Positions 4,003-36,100 of a stretch of DNA of 37,672 bases are shown here, piece by piece (position 1 is the stretch's first letter; every line of letters starts with the position of its first letter). This DNA is from a virus. Taxonomy: Duplodnaviria; Caudoviricetes. The translations under genes were made by a program, and so were the position numbers. Below the pieces are notes generated by a model. That model had not been told where the DNA came from, searched no databases, and saw only the letters and a list, made by a program, of their open reading frames with translations. The DNA lies in the IMG/VR virus record IMGVR_UViG_3300025875_000066, positions 1 through 37,672 of that record; one strand, 5' to 3'.

Positions 4003-4007
4003 GTAAT

Positions 4008-4017
4008 GAGACCTAAC
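4008..4017 (+). promoter_or_regulatory. GAGACCTAAC leader box
   Basis: Recurrent 10-mer; here just upstream of the AAAGGA SD of ORF 4035. Confidence 0.7.
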
Positions 4018-4034
4018 GAAAGGAAAAAATCATA

Positions 4035-4871
4035 ATGACATTAAGCAAAAGAGACGCCCACCTTAAAGACTACTTCTCAGCCGACCAGCTGAAGGGTCTC
4101 GACGAGGCCGAAAAGACTGTACTCTACGAAGAGTTTTCGAATAGCCAGCTTAAAGTTTTGGCCAGTCAAGAAATGGGAACTATTCATACTCAGCTCAAGA
4201 GATATTTAACCGCTGAAAATCATAGGCGACTTAGCCAGATACAGCCCGAAGAGTACGAGCTTCTAAAGCCTTGGTACTTGGAAACTTGCCATACGGTAGA
4301 CGAAATTATTTGTAGTAAATGCGGCGTTCTACTTGGCCTCGAGGTCGATACGATCGACGACGAAATGAACCCCTACCACCACGAAGGAAAGTTTGTCGTC
4401 GCTGTCGGCAATAAGCTTATGAGCTACCGACCACGCCTTGACGGTGTTATGGGCTACCAGTGTGGAAACATTATCGAAACTAAATATAAGTCGGCTTGGG
4501 ATAAGTACGGCGAAGACTTCGCTCAGTTCCAAAAGGACGAGGCTCGAGCTAAAGAGCAACACGAAGACGCTATACTTAAATATAATAATCTCTCGGAAAA
4601 GAAGAGAGAAAAAACCGAACAGCCAGTTTACGAAGGCCCGGTTACTCCCGAGAAACCAGAAGGCGAGCCCTACGAAGAGTGTACGAACGATACTCGTTGG
4701 GCTCAAATTGAAATTGACAATGTTCCTCAAGATCATGTAATGACTTCTATAACAAAAGAGGATAGAATTAAAGTTAAGCAGGAAATGAACGCCACGAACT
4801 ACGCTCCTGATGTAAAAACTACAAAGCGTGGTAAAAAGGTCGAGAGTTTCGAGCTCAGGAAGGTTAAATAG
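4035..4871 (+). CDS. Hypothetical protein with Cys ligands (CSKCG...YQCG...ECTND), 278 aa
   Basis: Long ORF with its own promoter and SD. Confidence 0.8.
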   Translation: MTLSKRDAHLKDYFSADQLKGLDEAEKTVLYEEFSNSQLKVLASQEMGTIHTQLKRYLTAENHRRLSQIQPEEYELLKPWYLETCHTVDEIICSKCGVLLGLEVDTIDDEMNPYHHEGKFVVAVGNKLMSYRPRLDGVMGYQCGNIIETKYKSAWDKYGEDFAQFQKDEARAKEQHEDAILKYNNLSEKKREKTEQPVYEGPVTPEKPEGEPYEECTNDTRWAQIEIDNVPQDHVMTSITKEDRIKVKQEMNATNYAPDVKTTKRGKKVESFELRKVK

Positions 4872-8390: not shown

Positions 8391-9128
8391 ATGATGAAAC
8401 ACAAGCTAAGATATGGAATACTCGCCGGGTTCTTCGCCCTTGGTACTTTTGCTATGGTCGCTTATGTAGTTATTCAAGCTATCATTCCGGCCGACGTTGG
8501 AAAATTTAACGAACTCAGGCTCGACACTAAAGAAGTAAAAGCCGGGTCTCTCGTGTTTTATGAGGCTCACGATTGTAAGCCTTCGAATTATCAAGCTGAC
8601 ATTTTCCGAACTATTAGCACTAATACCGTACCTCCTGAAATTACCCTTTCAGCTGGTGCTCGTTTTGACGATCGCCTCCTGTGTCGTAACGCTATTCTTA
8701 TTCCAAGTGAAGCCCCGACCGGGGAATATAGGCTTACTATTACTGTCGAATATTCTATAAATCCATTCCAAACTAAAACCGAAACTTATGTTTCCGACCC
8801 ATTCAAGGTTACGAACGATAACGAAGAATTTAACATTTTACAAGACGCCGTTCGAAACGAACAAGAGCGTCGAACCGATCAGCCTCATACTCCGGCCACT
8901 CCTACAGTTCCCAGCCCAAGCTCTAGCGTACCTGATACTAGCCCTATAGCTAGTCGGCCGACTACCCCAACCCCTCAGCCCAGCACTCCTACCCCAGACC
9001 CCGAAACGGCTATTCCTCAAGGCCCAGTTCAGAGAACCGTAAATGACGTACTGAATGGCGTTGGTAACGGTGTTAATGATATAACCCAACCCCTGTTATG
9101 CAACCCACTGTTGTCAATTTCGTGCTAA
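8391..9128 (+). CDS. Membrane-anchored protein with Ig-like domain and Pro/Thr-rich tail (~245 aa; start revised to ATG 8391)
   Basis: Basic N-terminus, TM helix, beta domain with a Cys pair, PTP linker. Confidence 0.7.
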   Translation: MMKHKLRYGILAGFFALGTFAMVAYVVIQAIIPADVGKFNELRLDTKEVKAGSLVFYEAHDCKPSNYQADIFRTISTNTVPPEITLSAGARFDDRLLCRNAILIPSEAPTGEYRLTITVEYSINPFQTKTETYVSDPFKVTNDNEEFNILQDAVRNEQERRTDQPHTPATPTVPSPSSSVPDTSPIASRPTTPTPQPSTPTPDPETAIPQGPVQRTVNDVLNGVGNGVNDITQPLLCNPLLSISC

Positions 9129-9164
9129 ACTATAAGCACTTACTCGTTAAAAAGGAGACCTAAC
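9123..9164 (+). promoter_or_regulatory. Endolysin promoter (TGCTAAACTATAAGCA) and AAAGGAGACCTAAC RBS box
   Basis: Both recurrent motifs present. Confidence 0.7.
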
Positions 9165-9167
9165 AAA

Positions 9168-10739
9168 ATGAGTTATAAACTAGAATTCCAACAAAGTCCA
9201 AACTATACGCCGGGTAGCCAGACCCAGTATTTTTATGGCCGTCCACGAACGATAGAGTTCGGAGCTGGCCACTGGTGGGACGACCCTTCTCGTGGCCCGA
9301 GCCACCAAGGAGTAGTTAATACGTTTATGAACCCGGCCCGGCAAGCTTCGGCTCATGCTGTTTTATCAGCTGGCCGAGTAACGGAAATGGTACGCCAAGG
9401 AGATGTTTCTTGGGCCACCAATAACGCTAACCCTTATACGTTCTCTATCGAGGTAGACCCTCGTATTACCGTTGGCGGTGCTCAGGCTGAAGCTGTTATG
9501 GCCACTCTCGCCGAGTATATCGCCGACAAGGGCTTTCATAACCTACAATGGTATCCACATAAAAAATGGTGGTCTACGGCTTGTAACCCTATCGACTGGG
9601 GCGAGGTTATGCGGCGAGCTAAGAAGGTTGTCGCTGATCGTAACAAGCCAAAATATAGCTGGCGTCCTATGCAAGTACCCCGAAAGCTGATCGCTAACGG
9701 CGATATTCGTCCCTTGAATTTGGATAACGGCCAGCGTGTCGGCGACGTTATAAAAAAAGGTACGCCGATCGAGTTCGCTACGGCCACCGAATTTAACGGT
9801 TCTACCTTCCTCCGAAGCAAATACTCGACTGCTAATAACCTTAACTACGGTATCGAAATGACTAGCCTTAAAGAATTGTCGCCTGAATATGTAACGAACG
9901 ATCTTCCTATGGTAGAACCCCGAGTTATGGCCGTCTCGAAAGACGTTCGAAAAGTAGACCTCGCTACCATGAAAGAAATAGAAGTAGTACTTACGAAGGG
10001 AACAGAAATTTCGTTTACTCGTAAAACTAAGGTTGGAAATACCGACTTCCTTCGAACGAAGCATGACGTCGGACTTGGCGACTGGAAGGGTATTCCACTG
10101 GCAAGCCTCGAGGAAGTAGTTCCTGAATGGGCTAAGAACCTCGACGACATTACCGACGTTAAGCTTATGGTTCTCCCGGCCGCTGGTACTCCTATTTACG
10201 AACTCAATAGTGGTAAAGAAATTGGTACTATCGCTAAGGGTACTTGGGTAGATATTGCCAAACAAACGAAGGTAGGCGGCCAGACGTACCTAATCAGTAA
10301 ATATTCTGTCGAAAACGTACTTCCTAACGGTGTAAAAATCGAAGACCTTGGCGTTCCTGTCGAGCCTCCTAAGCTCGAGAAACCAGAATGGCTAGAGAAA
10401 TGGGAAGATATTACCGACGTCGTTATGTACGCTCGAGTAAAGACACCTCTCGTAAACCTTATGGACGGTAGCACTATCAAGGAAATAGAAATAAATACGC
10501 CTATCGAAATAGCTTCGGCTACTACTTGGCATGGCCAGAAGTACTTAATTACGAAGTACTCGACCGATAAAAAAGAGGCCGCCGGTATTCCTCTCGCTAA
10601 CTTGAATATGGAAGAGATTAAAGAACCTGAAACCCCAGCCGAGCCAGTACCCGACAAGTCCACCGAGGAGCTCATTAAAGAAAATAATAGTATACTGAAA
10701 ATGATACTTGAACATTTCGGTATTAAAAGTAAGGAGTAA
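9168..10739 (+). CDS. Endolysin: N-acetylmuramoyl-L-alanine amidase (Amidase_2-type) plus four ~80-aa repeats
   Basis: HWW...ASAH...SIE...H...TAC zinc-amidase pattern; four KGT/NT...(F/Y)L..K...G(I/V)...L repeats. Confidence 0.88.
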   Translation: MSYKLEFQQSPNYTPGSQTQYFYGRPRTIEFGAGHWWDDPSRGPSHQGVVNTFMNPARQASAHAVLSAGRVTEMVRQGDVSWATNNANPYTFSIEVDPRITVGGAQAEAVMATLAEYIADKGFHNLQWYPHKKWWSTACNPIDWGEVMRRAKKVVADRNKPKYSWRPMQVPRKLIANGDIRPLNLDNGQRVGDVIKKGTPIEFATATEFNGSTFLRSKYSTANNLNYGIEMTSLKELSPEYVTNDLPMVEPRVMAVSKDVRKVDLATMKEIEVVLTKGTEISFTRKTKVGNTDFLRTKHDVGLGDWKGIPLASLEEVVPEWAKNLDDITDVKLMVLPAAGTPIYELNSGKEIGTIAKGTWVDIAKQTKVGGQTYLISKYSVENVLPNGVKIEDLGVPVEPPKLEKPEWLEKWEDITDVVMYARVKTPLVNLMDGSTIKEIEINTPIEIASATTWHGQKYLITKYSTDKKEAAGIPLANLNMEEIKEPETPAEPVPDKSTEELIKENNSILKMILEHFGIKSKE

Positions 10740-11314: not shown

Positions 11315-11500
11315 ATGGAAACAACAAAACAAACAATCATTTTCAAAGTAACGTATTACAATCAGGGTAAATTAAATATTAAGAAGACAATCGTTAGCCA
11401 TGCTGGTTTTTACTGGAAGACTATAGCCGTTCCTTATCTATCAGAGCTCGGCGATAAGATCGACTACTTCTTTCGTTACAATAAGTGGCCCTCTAATTAG
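11315..11500 (+). CDS. Small hypothetical protein (61 aa), probably leaderless
   Basis: ATG at 11315 right after the promoter. Confidence 0.6.
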   Translation: METTKQTIIFKVTYYNQGKLNIKKTIVSHAGFYWKTIAVPYLSELGDKIDYFFRYNKWPSN

Positions 11501-12209
11501 ACGGTGGGAACTGGCTCAGTCCGTGTTTCTTGAAACAGCCGGGGTTCTGAGTAGCCAAGCCACCGCTAGCGGCGTTCGTATTCTTGATTATAGTAGCGTC
11601 CTGAACGGCCGGAGGAGCTAGGTCGGCTCGAGCGTAGCCAGTATTCCAGTAATTCCAAGTAGGAATAGTAAACTGATACGCTCCATAAAAGCCGTTACCA
11701 GTGTTTATAGAATAGTTACCGCCGCTCTCGCATTGTCTGAGTACTCGTAGCCATTCAGCAAGTGAGCCACTATACCCCGAATTCGTAGAGTATTGGGGGC
11801 TAGGAGCGACGCTAGCGGCTTTACGGTCTAGTTCAGCCTGTCGAGCTATTTCGGCTTGTCTGGCGGCCTCCTGAGCGGCTTTCTCGGCGGCTACACGCTC
11901 AGCTTCAATACGAGCGGCCTCAGCCTTCGCCTTCTCTTCGGCTATTCTTTTTTCTTCAGCGATACGCTTAGCTTCGGCCCGGGCCTTGGCTTCGTCTCTA
12001 TTCATTTGATCGACGAGCTTCTGAGCGTCAGTAGAAACTTTACCGAGATTACGTCCAGCTATAGCCTCGATTAGAGACTTATCTATTTTCGGACTATCGG
12101 AAGAGTTGGAGGAATTCAGAGCTAATACTGGTAGGGTAAATACTACGAGCGATACGGCCAACGTCAGAAGAGACGCCCGGAGTAAGTCTAACTTTCGTAA
12201 AATATGCAA
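11493..12209 (-). CDS. Secreted resuscitation-promoting-factor (Rpf)-like lytic transglycosylase with coiled-coil stalk (~238 aa; probable TTG start at 12209)
   Basis: CESGGNYSINTGNGFYGAYQF...W...ADLA...Q Rpf signature; signal-peptide-like N-terminus; TGGTATAAT at 12236-12228. Confidence 0.88.
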   Translation of the reverse strand: MHILRKLDLLRASLLTLAVSLVVFTLPVLALNSSNSSDSPKIDKSLIEAIAGRNLGKVSTDAQKLVDQMNRDEAKARAEAKRIAEEKRIAEEKAKAEAARIEAERVAAEKAAQEAARQAEIARQAELDRKAASVAPSPQYSTNSGYSGSLAEWLRVLRQCESGGNYSINTGNGFYGAYQFTIPTWNYWNTGYARADLAPPAVQDATIIKNTNAASGGLATQNPGCFKKHGLSQFPPSN

Positions 12210-12247
12210 TTTCTCATTTACTAATTTATTATACCACGAGCTTTTTT

Positions 12248-12574
12248 CTAGCTGTCTAGGTTGTGATGATACTTCCGCATATATTCTATTTCGCCTGTTT
12301 GGTAATAGTGCTGGCATTTGTTTTGTAGCTTGGCCCAGTGTCCGGGGTCGCTGAGTACTTTCACGCCTTCGCACTCTCGAATATTGGACTGATCTATACT
12401 CTGGTCGATAGCCGTAACGAGGAGGAAGTACGCTCCCAGAAACCCGAGGACGGCGACGACCGCCCCGGCTAAAAAAGTTTTAATCGTACCTATGATTACT
12501 TTCTTGGCTATAGCCTTCTCTCGTTCATGTTGGCGGCGGCGAATACTTTCGTTTGAGTAATATCCTAATTGCAT
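12248..12574 (-). CDS. Membrane protein (108 aa)
   Basis: Single TM helix; GGAGA SD. Confidence 0.75.
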   Translation of the reverse strand: MQLGYYSNESIRRRQHEREKAIAKKVIIGTIKTFLAGAVVAVLGFLGAYFLLVTAIDQSIDQSNIRECEGVKVLSDPGHWAKLQNKCQHYYQTGEIEYMRKYHHNLDS

Positions 12575-12893: not shown

Positions 12894-12937
12894 AATTTAC
12901 CGCTTCCGCTTTATTAAGTCAAGGGTTTTTTGTTCGG
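12894..12937 (-). promoter_or_regulatory. Leftward promoter CCGAACAAA...TTGACT-17-TAAATT with CGGAAGCGG
   Basis: Exact 17-bp spacer; shared boxes. Confidence 0.8.
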
Positions 12938-16172: not shown

Positions 16173-16236
16173 GTTAGGTCTCCTTTTTAACGTTTTATGG
16201 TACTTCTATTTTACCGCTTCCGTTTATATATTGCAA
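16173..16236 (-). promoter_or_regulatory. Leftward promoter TTGCAA-17-TAAAAT with CGGAAGCGG, plus AAAGGAGACCTAAC RBS box
   Basis: Exact spacing; shared boxes. Confidence 0.8.
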
Positions 16237-19341: not shown

Positions 19342-19417
19342 GTTAGGTCTCCTTTTAACTTAATGCTGTTTTTAGTATAGTCTTACCGCTTCCGTTTGTA
19401 AAGCTTTTTTTGTTCGG
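19342..19417 (-). promoter_or_regulatory. Leftward promoter CCGAACAAA...TTTACA-17-TATACT with CGGAAGCGGTA, plus AAAGGAGACCTAAC RBS box
   Basis: Exact spacing; all three recurrent boxes. Confidence 0.8.
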
Positions 19418-20380: not shown

Positions 20381-20608
20381 TTATTGAACCGTTAAATGAC
20401 GGCTATAACGTTTCTGTCGATTGCGAGCTTCTCGCTCTTCGTCCCGAACTACTTTACGCTCAGGCTTGAACGTTTCGGGTAGCGGCTGGCTCATACGATC
20501 TAATAAAGTATCGTCGGTCAGGCCGTCAAAGTCCGGCTCGTTTACCATTTTCCGCAAGAGAAAATTCTGGCGGCGGCGGTTTTGTTTGAATGTTTTTAGT
20601 GGGTGCAT
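20381..20608 (-). CDS. Hypothetical basic protein (75 aa), first gene of the leftward arm
   Basis: AAAGGAGACCTAAC RBS. Confidence 0.78.
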   Translation of the reverse strand: MHPLKTFKQNRRRQNFLLRKMVNEPDFDGLTDDTLLDRMSQPLPETFKPERKVVRDEEREARNRQKRYSRHLTVQ

Positions 20609-20611
20609 TTC

Positions 20612-20690
20612 GTTAGGTCTCCTTTTATTTAACTTATGCTATCCCTATACTACCGCTTCCGCTTAGGCTCGTCAAGTACTTTTTGTTCGG
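20612..20690 (-). promoter_or_regulatory. Main leftward promoter CCGAACAAA...TTGACG-17-TAGTAT with CGGAAGCGG, plus RBS box
   Basis: Exact spacing; all three recurrent boxes. Confidence 0.8.
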
Positions 20691-20692
20691 TT

Positions 20693-20701
20693 TTATCCAC
20701 A
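20693..20701 (+). promoter_or_regulatory. Consensus DnaA box TTATCCACA
   Basis: Perfect 9-mer between divergent promoters. Confidence 0.55.
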
Positions 20702-20724
20702 AGCCGTTTAAGGTAAAATAACAG

Positions 20725-20815
20725 TAGCCCGAGCGTTAATTTGTGTGTTAGGTCTCAACTTTACTTCACTACTAACCAGAAGGGCTAGAGAGCCGCCTAC
20801 TTGGGCGGCTTTCGT
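20725..20815 (+). ncRNA. Candidate trans-acting antisense sRNA carrying GUUAGGUCUC
   Basis: TAAAAT -10 at 20714-20719; TAGCCC/GGGCTA closing stem; terminator 20791-20815; seed complementary to the RBS boxes. Confidence 0.6.
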
Positions 20816-20816
20816 T
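20791..20816 (+). terminator. Intrinsic terminator
   Basis: AGCCGCCT-actt-GGGCGGCT-TTCGTT; U.G pair and U-tail favour the plus strand. Confidence 0.65.
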
Positions 20817-21120
20817 ATTGCCCGGTCTTCCTCAGTTCTCGCTTCATACAGGTAATAAAATAGGCCAGCGGACTATTAGCCCGGGCCGACGCTTCCATAG
20901 CGTTATTTATTACAGCTTCCGACAAGTACCAACCAGCCTTTCGAAATAGCGGAGTATGGCTCTCGCTACGGAAGTGGCTAATTAGCCGCTCTACGATACC
21001 GTCTACCTGATTTACGCTCTTATGATTTCTTATGATCTTATGAGAAGATTTCTCTTGAAATTTCTTAGGATCATATGAGGTTCGAGCTGACAAAGTTTGT
21101 TCGATTTTTTGCATTGACAT
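20815..21120 (-). CDS. Putative small replication protein (DnaD/Rep C-terminal-like, 101 aa)
   Basis: ANSPLAYFITCMKREL resembles the xP.AY...(I/L) helix of initiator C-terminal domains; adjacent to DnaA boxes. Confidence 0.45.
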   Translation of the reverse strand: MSMQKIEQTLSARTSYDPKKFQEKSSHKIIRNHKSVNQVDGIVERLISHFRSESHTPLFRKAGWYLSEAVINNAMEASARANSPLAYFITCMKRELRKTGQ

Positions 21121-21142
21121 AGTACCCCCACCCCCCTATAAT
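21114..21142 (+). promoter_or_regulatory. Perfect sigma70 promoter TTGACA-17-TATAAT
   Basis: Exact consensus; overlaps the start of the opposite-strand gene. Confidence 0.85.
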
Positions 21143-21148
21143 AATCAG

Positions 21149-21206
21149 TAGGCTAAGACAAGAGACAACTCTTAACAAAGCTCCCGATTAACCCTCGGGG
21201 GTTTTT
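21149..21206 (+). ncRNA. Candidate ~58-nt countertranscript RNA
   Basis: Between the perfect promoter and the terminator CTCCCGA-ttaaccc-TCGGGGG-TTTTT; no ORF. Confidence 0.65.
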
Positions 21207-21280
21207 AATTTATACCTATTTTCTCGAGGCGACTAGTACGCTTCAAATTGTTACTCGCTTAGTCGGCTAAGACAAAAGAC
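21151..21280. repeat. Direct repeat GGCTAAGACAA(G/A)AGAC x2 (21151-21166, 21265-21280)
   Basis: 15 of 16 bases identical. Confidence 0.85.
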
Positions 21281-21291
21281 GAGCTGTATCT

Positions 21292-21321
21292 ATCATACGT
21301 CAGCTATTGACGTTTTGTAAA
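21292..21321 (-). promoter_or_regulatory. Leftward promoter TTTACA-18-TATGAT with palindrome ACGTCA-N5-TGACGT (21297-21313)
   Basis: Promoter elements plus an inverted repeat. Confidence 0.55.
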
Positions 21322-21339
21322 TACGGTTATGTTCGGGAC

Positions 21340-21380
21340 TGTGTATAAAGCTGGGGAAAACCGGGGGAAAAGGTGGATAA
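21340..21380 (-). other. Tandem DnaA-box-like cluster (candidate replication origin)
   Basis: TGTGTATAA, TGGGGAAAA, GGGGGAAAA, GGTGGATAA in the same orientation. Confidence 0.55.
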
Positions 21381-21400
21381 CTCTCCGAGCATAATCGTTA

Positions 21401-21457
21401 TTGAAAACGCCGAACAAATTTCGTATACTAGGAGTACTAAGCTAAAGGAGACCTAGC
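21401..21457 (+). promoter_or_regulatory. Rightward promoter TTGAAA-17-TATACT with CCGAACAAA in the spacer, plus AAAGGAGACCTAGC RBS box
   Basis: Exact spacing; shared boxes. Confidence 0.8.
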
Positions 21458-21460
21458 GAA

Positions 21461-22336: not shown

Positions 22337-22503
22337 TGTCTATATACCAACAGCTATTTTTCGCTCTCGTAATTTTCTTTATGTGTTTTCTTGGGGCTTA
22401 CTGGTTTATGCAAAATTGGCAAATTCAACACGCCCTTCTGTGGTACGTTTTCTGTCTTATCCTGCTAATAATTTTATTGTTCAAAAAAGGAACTGACGAA
22501 TGA
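22336..22503 (+). CDS. Small two-TM membrane protein (55 aa, MSIYQQLFFALVIFF...), not in the ORF track
   Basis: TAATG and ATGA overlaps at the two ends; two hydrophobic helices. Confidence 0.7.
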   Translation: MSIYQQLFFALVIFFMCFLGAYWFMQNWQIQHALLWYVFCLILLIILLFKKGTDE

Positions 22504-22748
22504 ATGAAACTCAGAAAAAAATCTTAGCCTATATTCGCCGCTATCATAAACGGAAGGGCTTCGCTCCAACTCAGCGAGAAATAGCTAACTATGCTCAGCG
22601 TTCAGTAAGCACTATTAACGAGGCTCTCGCCGGGCTCGAAGCACTTGGTAAGATCAGCAGGGAAAAAGCTCGCTCCGCTAACTCGGGTAAGGGCCGAACA
22701 ATCATATTACCCGGTTCTAATGTGAACAGTAGGACGATCAACTTATGA
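22500..22748 (+). CDS. LexA-type winged-helix DNA-binding domain without a peptidase domain (82 aa)
   Basis: TQKKILAYI...GFAPTQREIA...SVSTI...L..LE..GKISR...RTI. Confidence 0.82.
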   Translation: MNETQKKILAYIRRYHKRKGFAPTQREIANYAQRSVSTINEALAGLEALGKISREKARSANSGKGRTIILPGSNVNSRTINL

Positions 22749-23673: not shown

Positions 23674-23930
23674 GCCAAGGTACAATATGCCACCGACACG
23701 ACAGAAGCAATTACAGGCTGGCCCACGTTCGTCATAATCATTCAGCCTTTAGCGGCTACCACCGAACGTACAGCGACTACAGCTCCGTCGTATGTGTCGC
23801 CCCAGACCCGACTTCCTCGAACCCTAATAATGTTTGTAGCCACCGCTGGAATTCTAAAGCGGCTTGGGTGGATAATTTAGCCCACCTCAGCCCGGCCGAC
23901 GGCTACGCTATGAAGGAGACCTGTTTATGA
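23670..23930 (+). CDS. His/Cys-rich hypothetical protein (86 aa)
   Basis: GAGG SD; ATGA coupling. Confidence 0.72.
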   Translation: MSQGTICHRHDRSNYRLAHVRHNHSAFSGYHRTYSDYSSVVCVAPDPTSSNPNNVCSHRWNSKAAWVDNLAHLSPADGYAMKETCL

Positions 23931-36061: not shown

Positions 36062-36100
36062 TGGTATAATACGAATACCATTAAAAAAAGGAGACCTAAC
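36062..36100 (+). promoter_or_regulatory. TGGTATAAT promoter and AAAGGAGACCTAAC RBS box
   Basis: Extended -10 plus the recurrent box. Confidence 0.72.

Follow-up and report, generated by a model that had tools for sequence, protein, structure and literature searches.

The 37,672-nucleotide viral record IMGVR_UViG_3300025875_000066 (Duplodnaviria; Caudoviricetes), analysed here over its whole length and hereafter called the window, is a complete phage record of 37.7 kb with direct terminal repeats. It encodes a Mu-like head, a tail tube, a tape measure, an amidase endolysin, a RecT-like protein and an Rpf-like transglycosylase. No close phage was found in the GenBank set, where the best match reached 35%, and a single-protein search for relatives with RecT gave no matches. 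A candidate small RNA locus lies at the point of divergence between the leftward early operons and the rightward arm. The RNA predicted from this locus carries the exact complement, or seed, of a 10-letter word, or tag (GAGACCTAAC), that recurs at the ribosome-binding sites (RBSs) of dispersed phage genes (Table 1). No tRNA genes or Rfam families were found in the window; Rfam gave no matches at the gathering score, and three sub-threshold matches in 20600-21460 were unrelated.

Seven exact copies of the tag were found in the window, six of them at translation starts and one antisense. At no more than one mismatch, ten matches were observed against 2.95 ± 1.61 expected (0 of 100 shuffles as high), and a reversed-pattern control gave no exact copies as compared with seven. 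Six of the seven exact copies are located within 30 nt upstream of a start codon (binomial P 1.6e-9), where the zone upstream of the 62 chosen start codons makes up 2.5% of both strands; two of these 62 starts are mis-set, neither of them belonging to a tagged gene. The first-pass annotation, a reading of the letters alone, had listed open reading frames (ORFs) 4035, 9168, 16168, 19339, 20608 and 36102 as the genes preceded by the exact word and had singled out the copy at 20747-20756 as the only one not ahead of a start codon, and both statements were borne out. A seventh tagged start is formed by the variant at 21448, ahead of ORF 21461, which was correctly recognised as still compatible with the seed through G-U pairing and which has the same Shine-Dalgarno (SD)-proximal position as most of the other tags. 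The variant claimed ahead of ORF 23927 is present as a partial tag and is a weak site, and a 6-bp tag remnant precedes ORF 32558.

In six genes the tag overlaps the SD at its GAG and stops 1-4 nt short of the ATG. The exception is ORF 4035, where the tag is located 17 nt upstream, ahead of the SD. The tagged genes cover recombination, early genes of no known function, tail and lysis, with ORF 36102 being a tail chaperone by position. Most of them directly follow a sigma-70-type or extended -10 promoter as its first gene. Most tags lie 8-20 nt 3' of predicted transcription starts, and the orphan antisense copy is similarly spaced from its own -10.

Table 1. Positions of the tags, the predicted RNA unit and the adjoining promoter in the window
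Feature	Position	Strand	Remarks
-10 hexamer TAAAAT of predicted small-RNA promoter	20714..20719	+	weak -35; TAGAAT at the equivalent place in relative L128
Predicted ~93-nt non-coding RNA	20726..20818	+	seed hairpin followed by 3' hairpin; putative ends
Seed GUUAGGUCUC	20747..20756	+	exact complement of the tag; apical CUC unpaired
Terminator-like hairpin	20788..20819	+	weak U tail; converges on the stop of ORF 21114-20815
Divergent leftward sigma-70-type promoter	20647..20675	-	operator-like spacer motif 20652-20664
Tag	20612..20621	-	RBS of ORF 20608-20381, leading gene of the divergent leftward operon
Tag	19342..19351	-	RBS of RecT-like gene 19339-18416; kept in L128
Tag	16173..16182	-	RBS of ORF 16168-15458 (PHROG exonuclease-like)
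Tag variant GAGACCTAGC	21448..21457	+	RBS of ORF 21461, first rightward gene; G-U with seed
Tag	36091..36100	+	RBS of ORF 36102, which lies between the genes for the tail tube and the tape measure
Tag	9155..9164	+	RBS of amidase endolysin 9168-10739
Tag	4008..4017	+	over ATG of upstream ORF 4006-4035, whose stop overlaps the ORF 4035 start; 12-bp helix
Weak partial tag	23916..23923	+	before ORF 23927; 8 bp pairing, -5.6 kcal/mol

The TAAAAT at 20714 and the folded, seed-bearing unit with its 3' hairpin are present as first described. The plus strand of the unit folds with a z of -4.4; the minus strand also folds (z -2.1) and would present the tag in a loop. On that strand a TTG frame of 16 codons runs through the seed without an SD. 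The seed hairpin is closed by GCCC (20727-30) paired with GGGC (20782-85). Four other runs, one from each of four studies, have contigs that span the unit, and the sole change listed in 20706-20814 is T20786C, which occurs in all four; this count is subject to per-piece difference totals that exceed the listed changes by 1-3 and to the shared ancestry of the strains. The change breaks the A20726-U20786 pair and therefore the conserved closing stem is GCCC/GGGC and not the 6-bp TAGCCC/GGGCTA stem proposed at first. Background divergence in two of the four runs is 7-8%, from which about eight changes would be expected in the unit (P 0.001-0.003). Those runs that are labelled RNA-Seq are probably DNA and were kept as contigs, with no bearing on transcription.

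An accessibility-corrected pairing scan of the RNA, which had been suggested as a check, placed all seven tagged leaders in the top 8 of 62 with energies of -7.4 to -10.9 kcal/mol. This ranking is partly circular because the RNA was selected on its complementarity to the tags. A second predicted target, the 6032 leader (-9.7 kcal/mol), was dropped, as it pairs via a part of the RNA that is absent from the close relative L128.

L128, with a terminase 80% identical to that of the window, retains the -10, the 15-nt core of the seed region (TGTTAGGTCTCAACT), which is unchanged, and the stem, where a C-G pair is replaced by a compensatory G-C pair. The remaining hairpin and the whole terminator have diverged and are followed by a clear plus-strand U-tract. 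Tags were found at four starts in L128, two of them before genes without a window homologue at that place. For example, the tag of ORF 20608 is kept there before a non-homologous gene. The variant GAGACCTAGC recurs at L128:2827, and the gene equivalent to ORF 36102 is tagged in L128 and carries a T-less tag in the more distant L159. The first-pass annotation had extended the seed helix across an AA bulge by pairing CUUU with the AAAG of the SD; this extension is predicted in the window, but L128 reads CUCU in place of CUUU and other lineages pair GUCUCC directly. An exact-pattern scan of viral contigs recovered one close relative (L011) among 118 loci. Most other exact-pattern matches in viral contigs were set aside as chance, both of two being unrelated in one scan and three of four lying within an unrelated coding region in another.

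More distant relatives were observed to carry altered tags with matching antisense copies. In L159 (terminase 50% identical) the tag minus one T occurs at three starts, including that of the gene after the tail tube, and the contig stops short of the RNA locus. A predict-then-find search, in which the seed was required, looked for a T-less tag in leftward orientation with its antisense after it and gave 34 matches. Only L206 and L214 among these are homologous to window proteins (portal 36% identical), and both show full synteny: a tagged leftward gene, a promoter with the spacer motif, a divergent -10, an antisense seed hairpin with U-tract and a converging small gene. The remaining 32 matches are unrelated to the window and were rejected. 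A seed-blind retrieval by portal protein yielded 273 relatives, of which 77 loci were kept. A scan of the 76 new loci for 8-mers repeated at starts then flagged 13 with a GGAGAC tag and three in which the repeats were generic, being SD-like or rich in GC. Two further tag types emerged from this retrieval, each with one syntenic antisense copy. Records L233-L235 carry GGAGACCAACC, and L274, L278, L282, L284, L285 and L305 carry GGAGACCAG(C/T)C, with the exact antisense at the equivalent place in both groups. The whole genomes G008 and G009 carry the tag GGAGACAAAC, and there a terminator-like hairpin downstream of TATACT has the antisense in its loop; in the complete genomes G003 and G004 eight of nine copies of a 9-mer lie at starts and the ninth is the seed.

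Tag and seed were found to co-vary in four core variants, GAGAC-CTAAC, -CAAC, -CAGC and -AAAC. Fifteen records with tags and a covered locus form the covariation set (L284 was left out as its unit matches that of L285). The antisense copy is syntenic and beside a divergent promoter in all 15, and 14 of the 15 seeds pair over at least 10 bp with at least one of their own tags. The first-pass annotation had named relatives that keep the RBS box and lack the antisense copy as evidence against the RNA; no such record was found among the 15 scored, and the covariation of seed and box that it had looked for is present. Six further tagged contigs end before the locus and are uninformative (L159, L129, L269, L275, L279 and L281). 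The matrix of seed and tag pairing is block-diagonal. As an example, the window seed pairs with the GGAGAC starts of its own clade over a mean of 9.6 and 8.9 bp, and on the remaining 14 phages this falls to 5.0-6.0 bp. The seed of L274 pairs over 10.0-11.0 bp on cognate tags and 6.1-8.4 bp on other tags, and the G008 and G009 seeds over 8.0-8.3 bp and 6.0-7.8 bp respectively. The common tag variants, such as that at 21448 and the C-to-U change in the L274 group, are tolerated by G-U pairing. In a quick tree of the portal protein each of the four seed core types has a supported branch of its own, which corresponds to at least three concerted changes as counted by eye. On these comparisons, the tag and the antisense copy together form what is a real, co-evolving RNA-and-tag system.

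The covariation of a cloverleaf fold, G-U pairs and U-tracts point to an RNA being made from the plus strand of the unit. In the L233 and L274 lineages (nine units, eight distinct sequences) the unit is predicted to form a cloverleaf of four helices, in which a loop of 7 nt holds the seed. Fourteen of its 23 pairs have changed on both sides, 96.6% of the cells are paired, and 17 G-U cells were counted against six unpaired ones; the cloverleaf was drawn from the scored sequences themselves and its slide control is biased accordingly. UUCG and GAAA loops, -10 boxes and the G-U cells favour the plus strand. Plus-strand U-tracts after the hairpin are clear in L128, L206, L214 and G009. Each of the 15 units has a -10-like hexamer upstream of its seed. 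Where the -35 of the divergent promoter was recognised, in 13 units, it is 33-34, 44-46 or 56 nt away from this -10, which was picked by eye from candidates. These steps are close to one helical turn, which suggests that the two divergent promoters may be coupled.

We consider it likely that this unit encodes a trans-acting antisense RNA which occludes the SD and spacer of at least seven tagged genes. In the mechanism that we propose, host RNA polymerase would transcribe the ~90-nt RNA from a promoter placed back-to-back with the main leftward one. The seed would make contact with the tag through its exposed CUC; in this clade the tag is predicted to lie in the loop of a weak leader hairpin, giving a loop-loop start. 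A helix of 10-12 bp would then zip across the GAG of the SD and the spacer and stop 1-4 nt before the AUG, blocking in trans the loading of ribosomes on all tagged mRNAs together. A helix across the SD and spacer prevents loading of the 30S subunit, for which these nucleotides must be single-stranded, and repression is therefore the sign that we have chosen. The idea of one antisense RNA silencing many operons is borne out by comparison for the match of tag and seed, and is extended to repression on the geometry of the helix. Given the tags, the antisense copy, the synteny and the covariation that were observed, we infer that transcription, pairing in vivo and repression are quite probable. 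Internal genes are tagged too (L214 9348 and 8407), which fits action at the RNA level.

The RNA would probably be one of two control layers, working alongside a DNA-binding protein at the promoter-spacer motif. This operator-like motif was observed in the -35/-10 spacer of four leftward promoters (12899-12911, 16213-16225, 19385-19397 and 20652-20664); at the corresponding promoters of L206 it takes a palindromic form, and other lineages have a different one. A winged-helix LexA-type gene at 22500-22748 (PF01726, E 5e-9), which is present in the window and G002 only among 10 records, also points to a protein layer. A second motif, CGAACAAA, is located near many promoters.

Several observations weigh against the antisense reading or narrow it. 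A consensus scan of the window called neither the small-RNA promoter nor the terminator: the -35 is weak, as was said at the outset, and of the plus-strand terminator claimed in the first-pass annotation the 3' hairpin is present and the U-tract is weak. The cloverleaf lineages have no clear U-tract and the scaffolds differ among lineages. A covariance model of the cloverleaf misses the units of the window, L128, L206, L214, G008 and G009, and homology therefore rests on position and seed. The seed was also said to be partly paired with CTAAC at 20772; half of it is indeed sequestered, but in the best fold UAAC (20773-76) pairs with GUUA (20735-38) and not with the seed, and opening the seed would cost 4.6 kcal/mol. 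For the window, L128, L206 and L214 alike, the predicted fold leaves the central CUC or UCUC of the seed exposed, and 4.6-5.5 kcal/mol are required to open it fully. In L295 the seed and its own tags differ by one central mismatch, leaving 7 contiguous bp, and GUUGG-type seeds fit CAGC-type tags via G-U pairing over 9.3-11.0 bp, where energy alone separates the groups. Furthermore, one of the four promoters of the operator type leads to an untagged gene, 12860, and leader hairpins were found in only 16 of 53 leaders over all lineages, being clear in the window clade alone. The GGAGAC tag is missing from G007, G010 and G013, which belong to the clade, and therefore the system is dispensable in the family. 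Lastly, integrase and ParA families (PF00589, PF00239 and PF13614) were not found in the seven complete tag-bearing genomes, which thus show no sign of a temperate life.

Some of these records carry peculiarities of their own. In L295 (L295:338-432) the mismatched seed is followed by a second partial seed copy, which may reflect a natural escape variant or a sequence error. G007 (L314-L316) has another repeated start motif, TAAGCAGGA, in four copies together with a serine integrase, and G013 (L324) has AAAGGAAC at four starts. Two copies of GGAGACCTAAC each were also noticed at starts in L016 (10004, 10383) and L038 (8633, 8926), which are non-homologous to the window.

As for its role, the tagged genes mostly come first after sigma-70-type promoters and include the endolysin and a tail gene, and the RNA might therefore act as a gatekeeper that silences phage transcripts driven by host polymerase, in dormancy or as a block to superinfection. 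This is the weakest step of our argument and is offered tentatively. The first-pass annotation had proposed immunity in a phage without a recognisable CI; this was not established, and a temperate lifestyle of the tagged phages is itself unproven. The same pairing and repression could instead serve a cycle that is lytic throughout, as a timer or as a brake on dosage, a proposal that differs in role and shares the mechanism. HTH_3, tyrosine integrase and ParA were not found in nine complete genomes, where the untagged G007 is the sole integrase carrier; the absence of these families from the tag-bearing complete genomes agrees with a lytic timer, and so do the placement of tags mostly on early genes and the converging ORF, which is not shown as a replication initiator. 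However, the endolysin, the tail gene in the chaperone position and, in other lineages, a pre-terminase gene are tagged as well, and a late shut-off of tagged lysis and assembly genes would hinder lysis and assembly. The divergence of seeds among lineages also resembles specificity groups, as in the account of c4 of P1 and P7 given in part of a review (PMC12197685). We judge a lytic timer rather unlikely and the most probable of the alternatives.

Two other explanations retain the tag as an RNA element and seem improbable to us. In one, pairing would activate the tagged genes by opening a leader hairpin that hides the AUG. Weak hairpins that hold the SD and tag in the loop, and pair the spacer and AUG, are predicted in five of six window leaders and three of four G002 leaders (p <= 0.1 against shuffled upstream arms), and at 21448 the upstream leader arm has changed from GUUA to GCUA along with the tag variant, a compensatory change in cis. 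Such an on-switch is difficult to reconcile with a duplex covering 3-4 SD bases and the spacer, which are needed single-stranded for 30S loading, with hairpins that are weak (-3 to -6 kcal/mol) and mostly missing in other lineages, and with the normal anti-SD of a 16S tail from the candidate host phylum. In the other, the tag would be the site of an RNA-binding protein or nuclease of the RegA/RegB kind and the orphan copy a sense decoy on a minus-strand RNA, in the manner of CsrB. The fold of the minus strand with the tag in its loop and the GGAG within the tag would suit such a protein site. The -10 boxes, U-tracts, UUCG and GAAA loops and 17 G-U cells speak for the opposite strand, and a decoy would be expected to have an SD-like flank or several copies, which differs from the single copy seen here with TT replacing AG.

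Still less probable is a DNA operator positioned just 3' of promoters, with the orphan as an operator in the opposite orientation. It would account for the spacing of most tags from the predicted transcription starts and of the orphan from its -10, but the tag is asymmetric, is tied to the SD and ATG and not to the -10, is always sense at genes and also occurs at internal genes; the orphan is always antisense and within a covarying RNA fold, and the promoter spacers already contain a separate operator-like motif. That the tag is an extended SD match to an unusual host 16S tail with a chance antisense copy, as its AAAGGAG would permit, is largely refuted by covariation: one phage family has four tag variants, and for each of them the matching antisense copy occupies the equivalent locus. 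In addition, the single 16S tail read from Patescibacteria (candidate host phylum) has an ordinary anti-SD, and the tag has 0-1 copy in each of five Patescibacteria genomes, with no enrichment.

An antisense RNA that reads a dispersed tag can be set beside several known systems. The CI RNA of phage P4 controls lysis and lysogeny and acts by premature termination of one leader. The sar RNA of P22 is presented, in the part of the review concerned with it, as an antisense RNA that controls the lysis-lysogeny balance and is cis-encoded against one mRNA (PMC12197685). Unlike sar and CI, the window RNA would read a dispersed tag. The same review describes c4 of P1 and P7, in its passages on this RNA, as a structured trans-acting phage RNA whose short loops bind near the RBS and block translation; sequence differences in c4 confer heteroimmunity between P1 and P7, and the single target given there is the ant mRNA (PMC12197685). 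The RNA described here resembles c4 in its loop sequence complementary to an RBS-proximal target, where the complementarity is direct and the folds are predicted. The cloverleaf fold of the c4 and CI families is predicted for the L233 and L274 lineages, the window RNA folding instead as a hairpin followed by a terminator. Unlike c4, the predicted targets are 7-9 unlinked transcripts with one shared tag and one seed loop. In the window the seven unlinked target genes and the lack of an Rfam covariance match set the RNA apart from both c4 and CI, and no antirepressor family was found among the 62 window proteins scanned. It would work like P1 c4, but across many transcripts.

The phage antisense RNAs treated in those passages have either a single phage mRNA or host genes as their targets, and GcvB is given there as a multi-target bacterial RNA that pairs through a seed (PMC12197685). 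The window RNA is similar to GcvB in setting one short seed against many mRNAs at their RBSs and differs from it as the targets are the phage's own genes, the pairing is near-perfect and the sites have apparently been rewritten in concert with the seed. In the literature covered, which comprises titles and abstract openings and few subscription papers, no multi-target phage RNA of this kind was found described. The seed motifs are absent from six supplementary files of PMC10690425; files 1, 2 and 4 lie outside this search and may hold the RNA as an unannotated candidate.

The closest parallel to the tag is found in the start-associated sequence (SAS) of cluster K mycobacteriophages, described in 2011. 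Passages on it describe an asymmetric repeat at the RBS, 3-9 bp before the start and extending beyond 16S pairing, which is linked to 17-bp promoter-embedded inverted repeats (extended SAS, ESAS), and report a single reverse SAS not tied to a gene in four cluster K phages (PMC3203893). Its role is still called unknown in passages of papers from 2024/2025 (PMC11373665, PMC12699233). The window tag is likewise asymmetric, over the RBS, a few bases before the ATG and sense to the gene, and one copy in the opposite orientation lies away from starts in the window (20747-20756) and in each of G003 and G004. Unlike the tag, the SAS has a 13-bp consensus that shares only the AGGAG core with it and belongs to another phage family; as compared with the ESAS, the window promoters carry a different and shorter operator-like spacer motif. 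The SAS passages of these three papers give no antisense RNA (PMC3203893, PMC11373665, PMC12699233). In the right half of the Anaya genome we found 15 forward SAS sites and one reverse site. The latter (59870-59882, in L333:29773-29907) has one mismatch and falls in the gap that separates genes 96 and 97. Its plus-strand reading is displayed by a long predicted hairpin, in the apical loop (z -2.2, 7 of 300 shuffles), and the minus strand folds there too. This hairpin appears to have the same anatomy as the window RNA and is a lead from one genome. No reverse SAS was found in the last 7.3 kb of ZoeJ.

A broader and more tentative scheme, which we hold with less confidence than the role in dormancy, would have phages place a private barcode at the RBS of the gateway gene in every transcript made by host polymerase and read it with one RNA as master repressor and immunity determinant. 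Barcode and seed would co-diverge into specificity groups, and the scheme would explain the cluster K SAS, with the lone reverse copy as the seed loop. It makes the question of the SAS elements testable, and the cluster K phages can be grown on a laboratory strain. If true, control of early, structural and lysis transcripts by one RNA would be the RNA-level equivalent of a CI repressor with dispersed operators, and natural pairs of seed and tag with little cross-pairing would be ready-made orthogonal translation switches.

Among the neighbouring elements, the converging ORF 20815-21114 (minus strand) encodes a conserved 99-residue four-helix protein of a viral family, of which 93 sequences were aligned. 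Repeats of the TCTTATGA type are found in its 5' part and a DnaA-box match is located at 20693. A Foldseek search gave nothing for this protein; in the fold comparison the best Z was 7.1 and a DnaD domain reached 5.5, and weak DnaD/RepB C-terminal leads were obtained. An alignment search recovered only the L128 contig among viral contigs and nothing in genomes. A plasmid prophage was not adopted, as the matches of this ORF to DnaD/RepB-like proteins are weak. A second small-RNA candidate lies at 21114-21320, with a perfect TTGACA-17-TATAAT promoter (21114-21142, plus strand) and a terminator at 21177-21210, and is antisense to the ~180-nt leader of the converging ORF. A direct repeat at ~21152 and ~21266 changes in concert in L128, and a promoter and terminator are similarly placed in L206 and L214. 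This region looks like a plasmid-type antisense or attenuation control, as far as its sequence features can tell.

The Rpf-like transglycosylase (11493-12374, minus strand) has a catalytic domain 62% identical to a protein in a Moranbacteria-phylum genome sample. Six of 401 genomes were matched, the sample being the phylum of a Moranbacteria metagenome-assembled genome and the sole phylum sampled, and the domain is much nearer to the Moranbacteria-phylum protein than to mycobacterial Rpf structures. This may be a hint of Patescibacteria as the host or as a gene donor. In addition, the promoters of ORF 4035 and the endolysin (window 4006-4037 and 9123-9135) have a common 16-nt sequence around the extended -10, and the 9-codon upstream ORF is coupled to ORF 4035 via a stop-start overlap. 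Lastly, L206 (249-3533 and 8577-11973) encodes a PD-(D/E)XK nuclease-FtsK fusion, a KwaB-like protein, a DNA methylase and a SAM synthetase.
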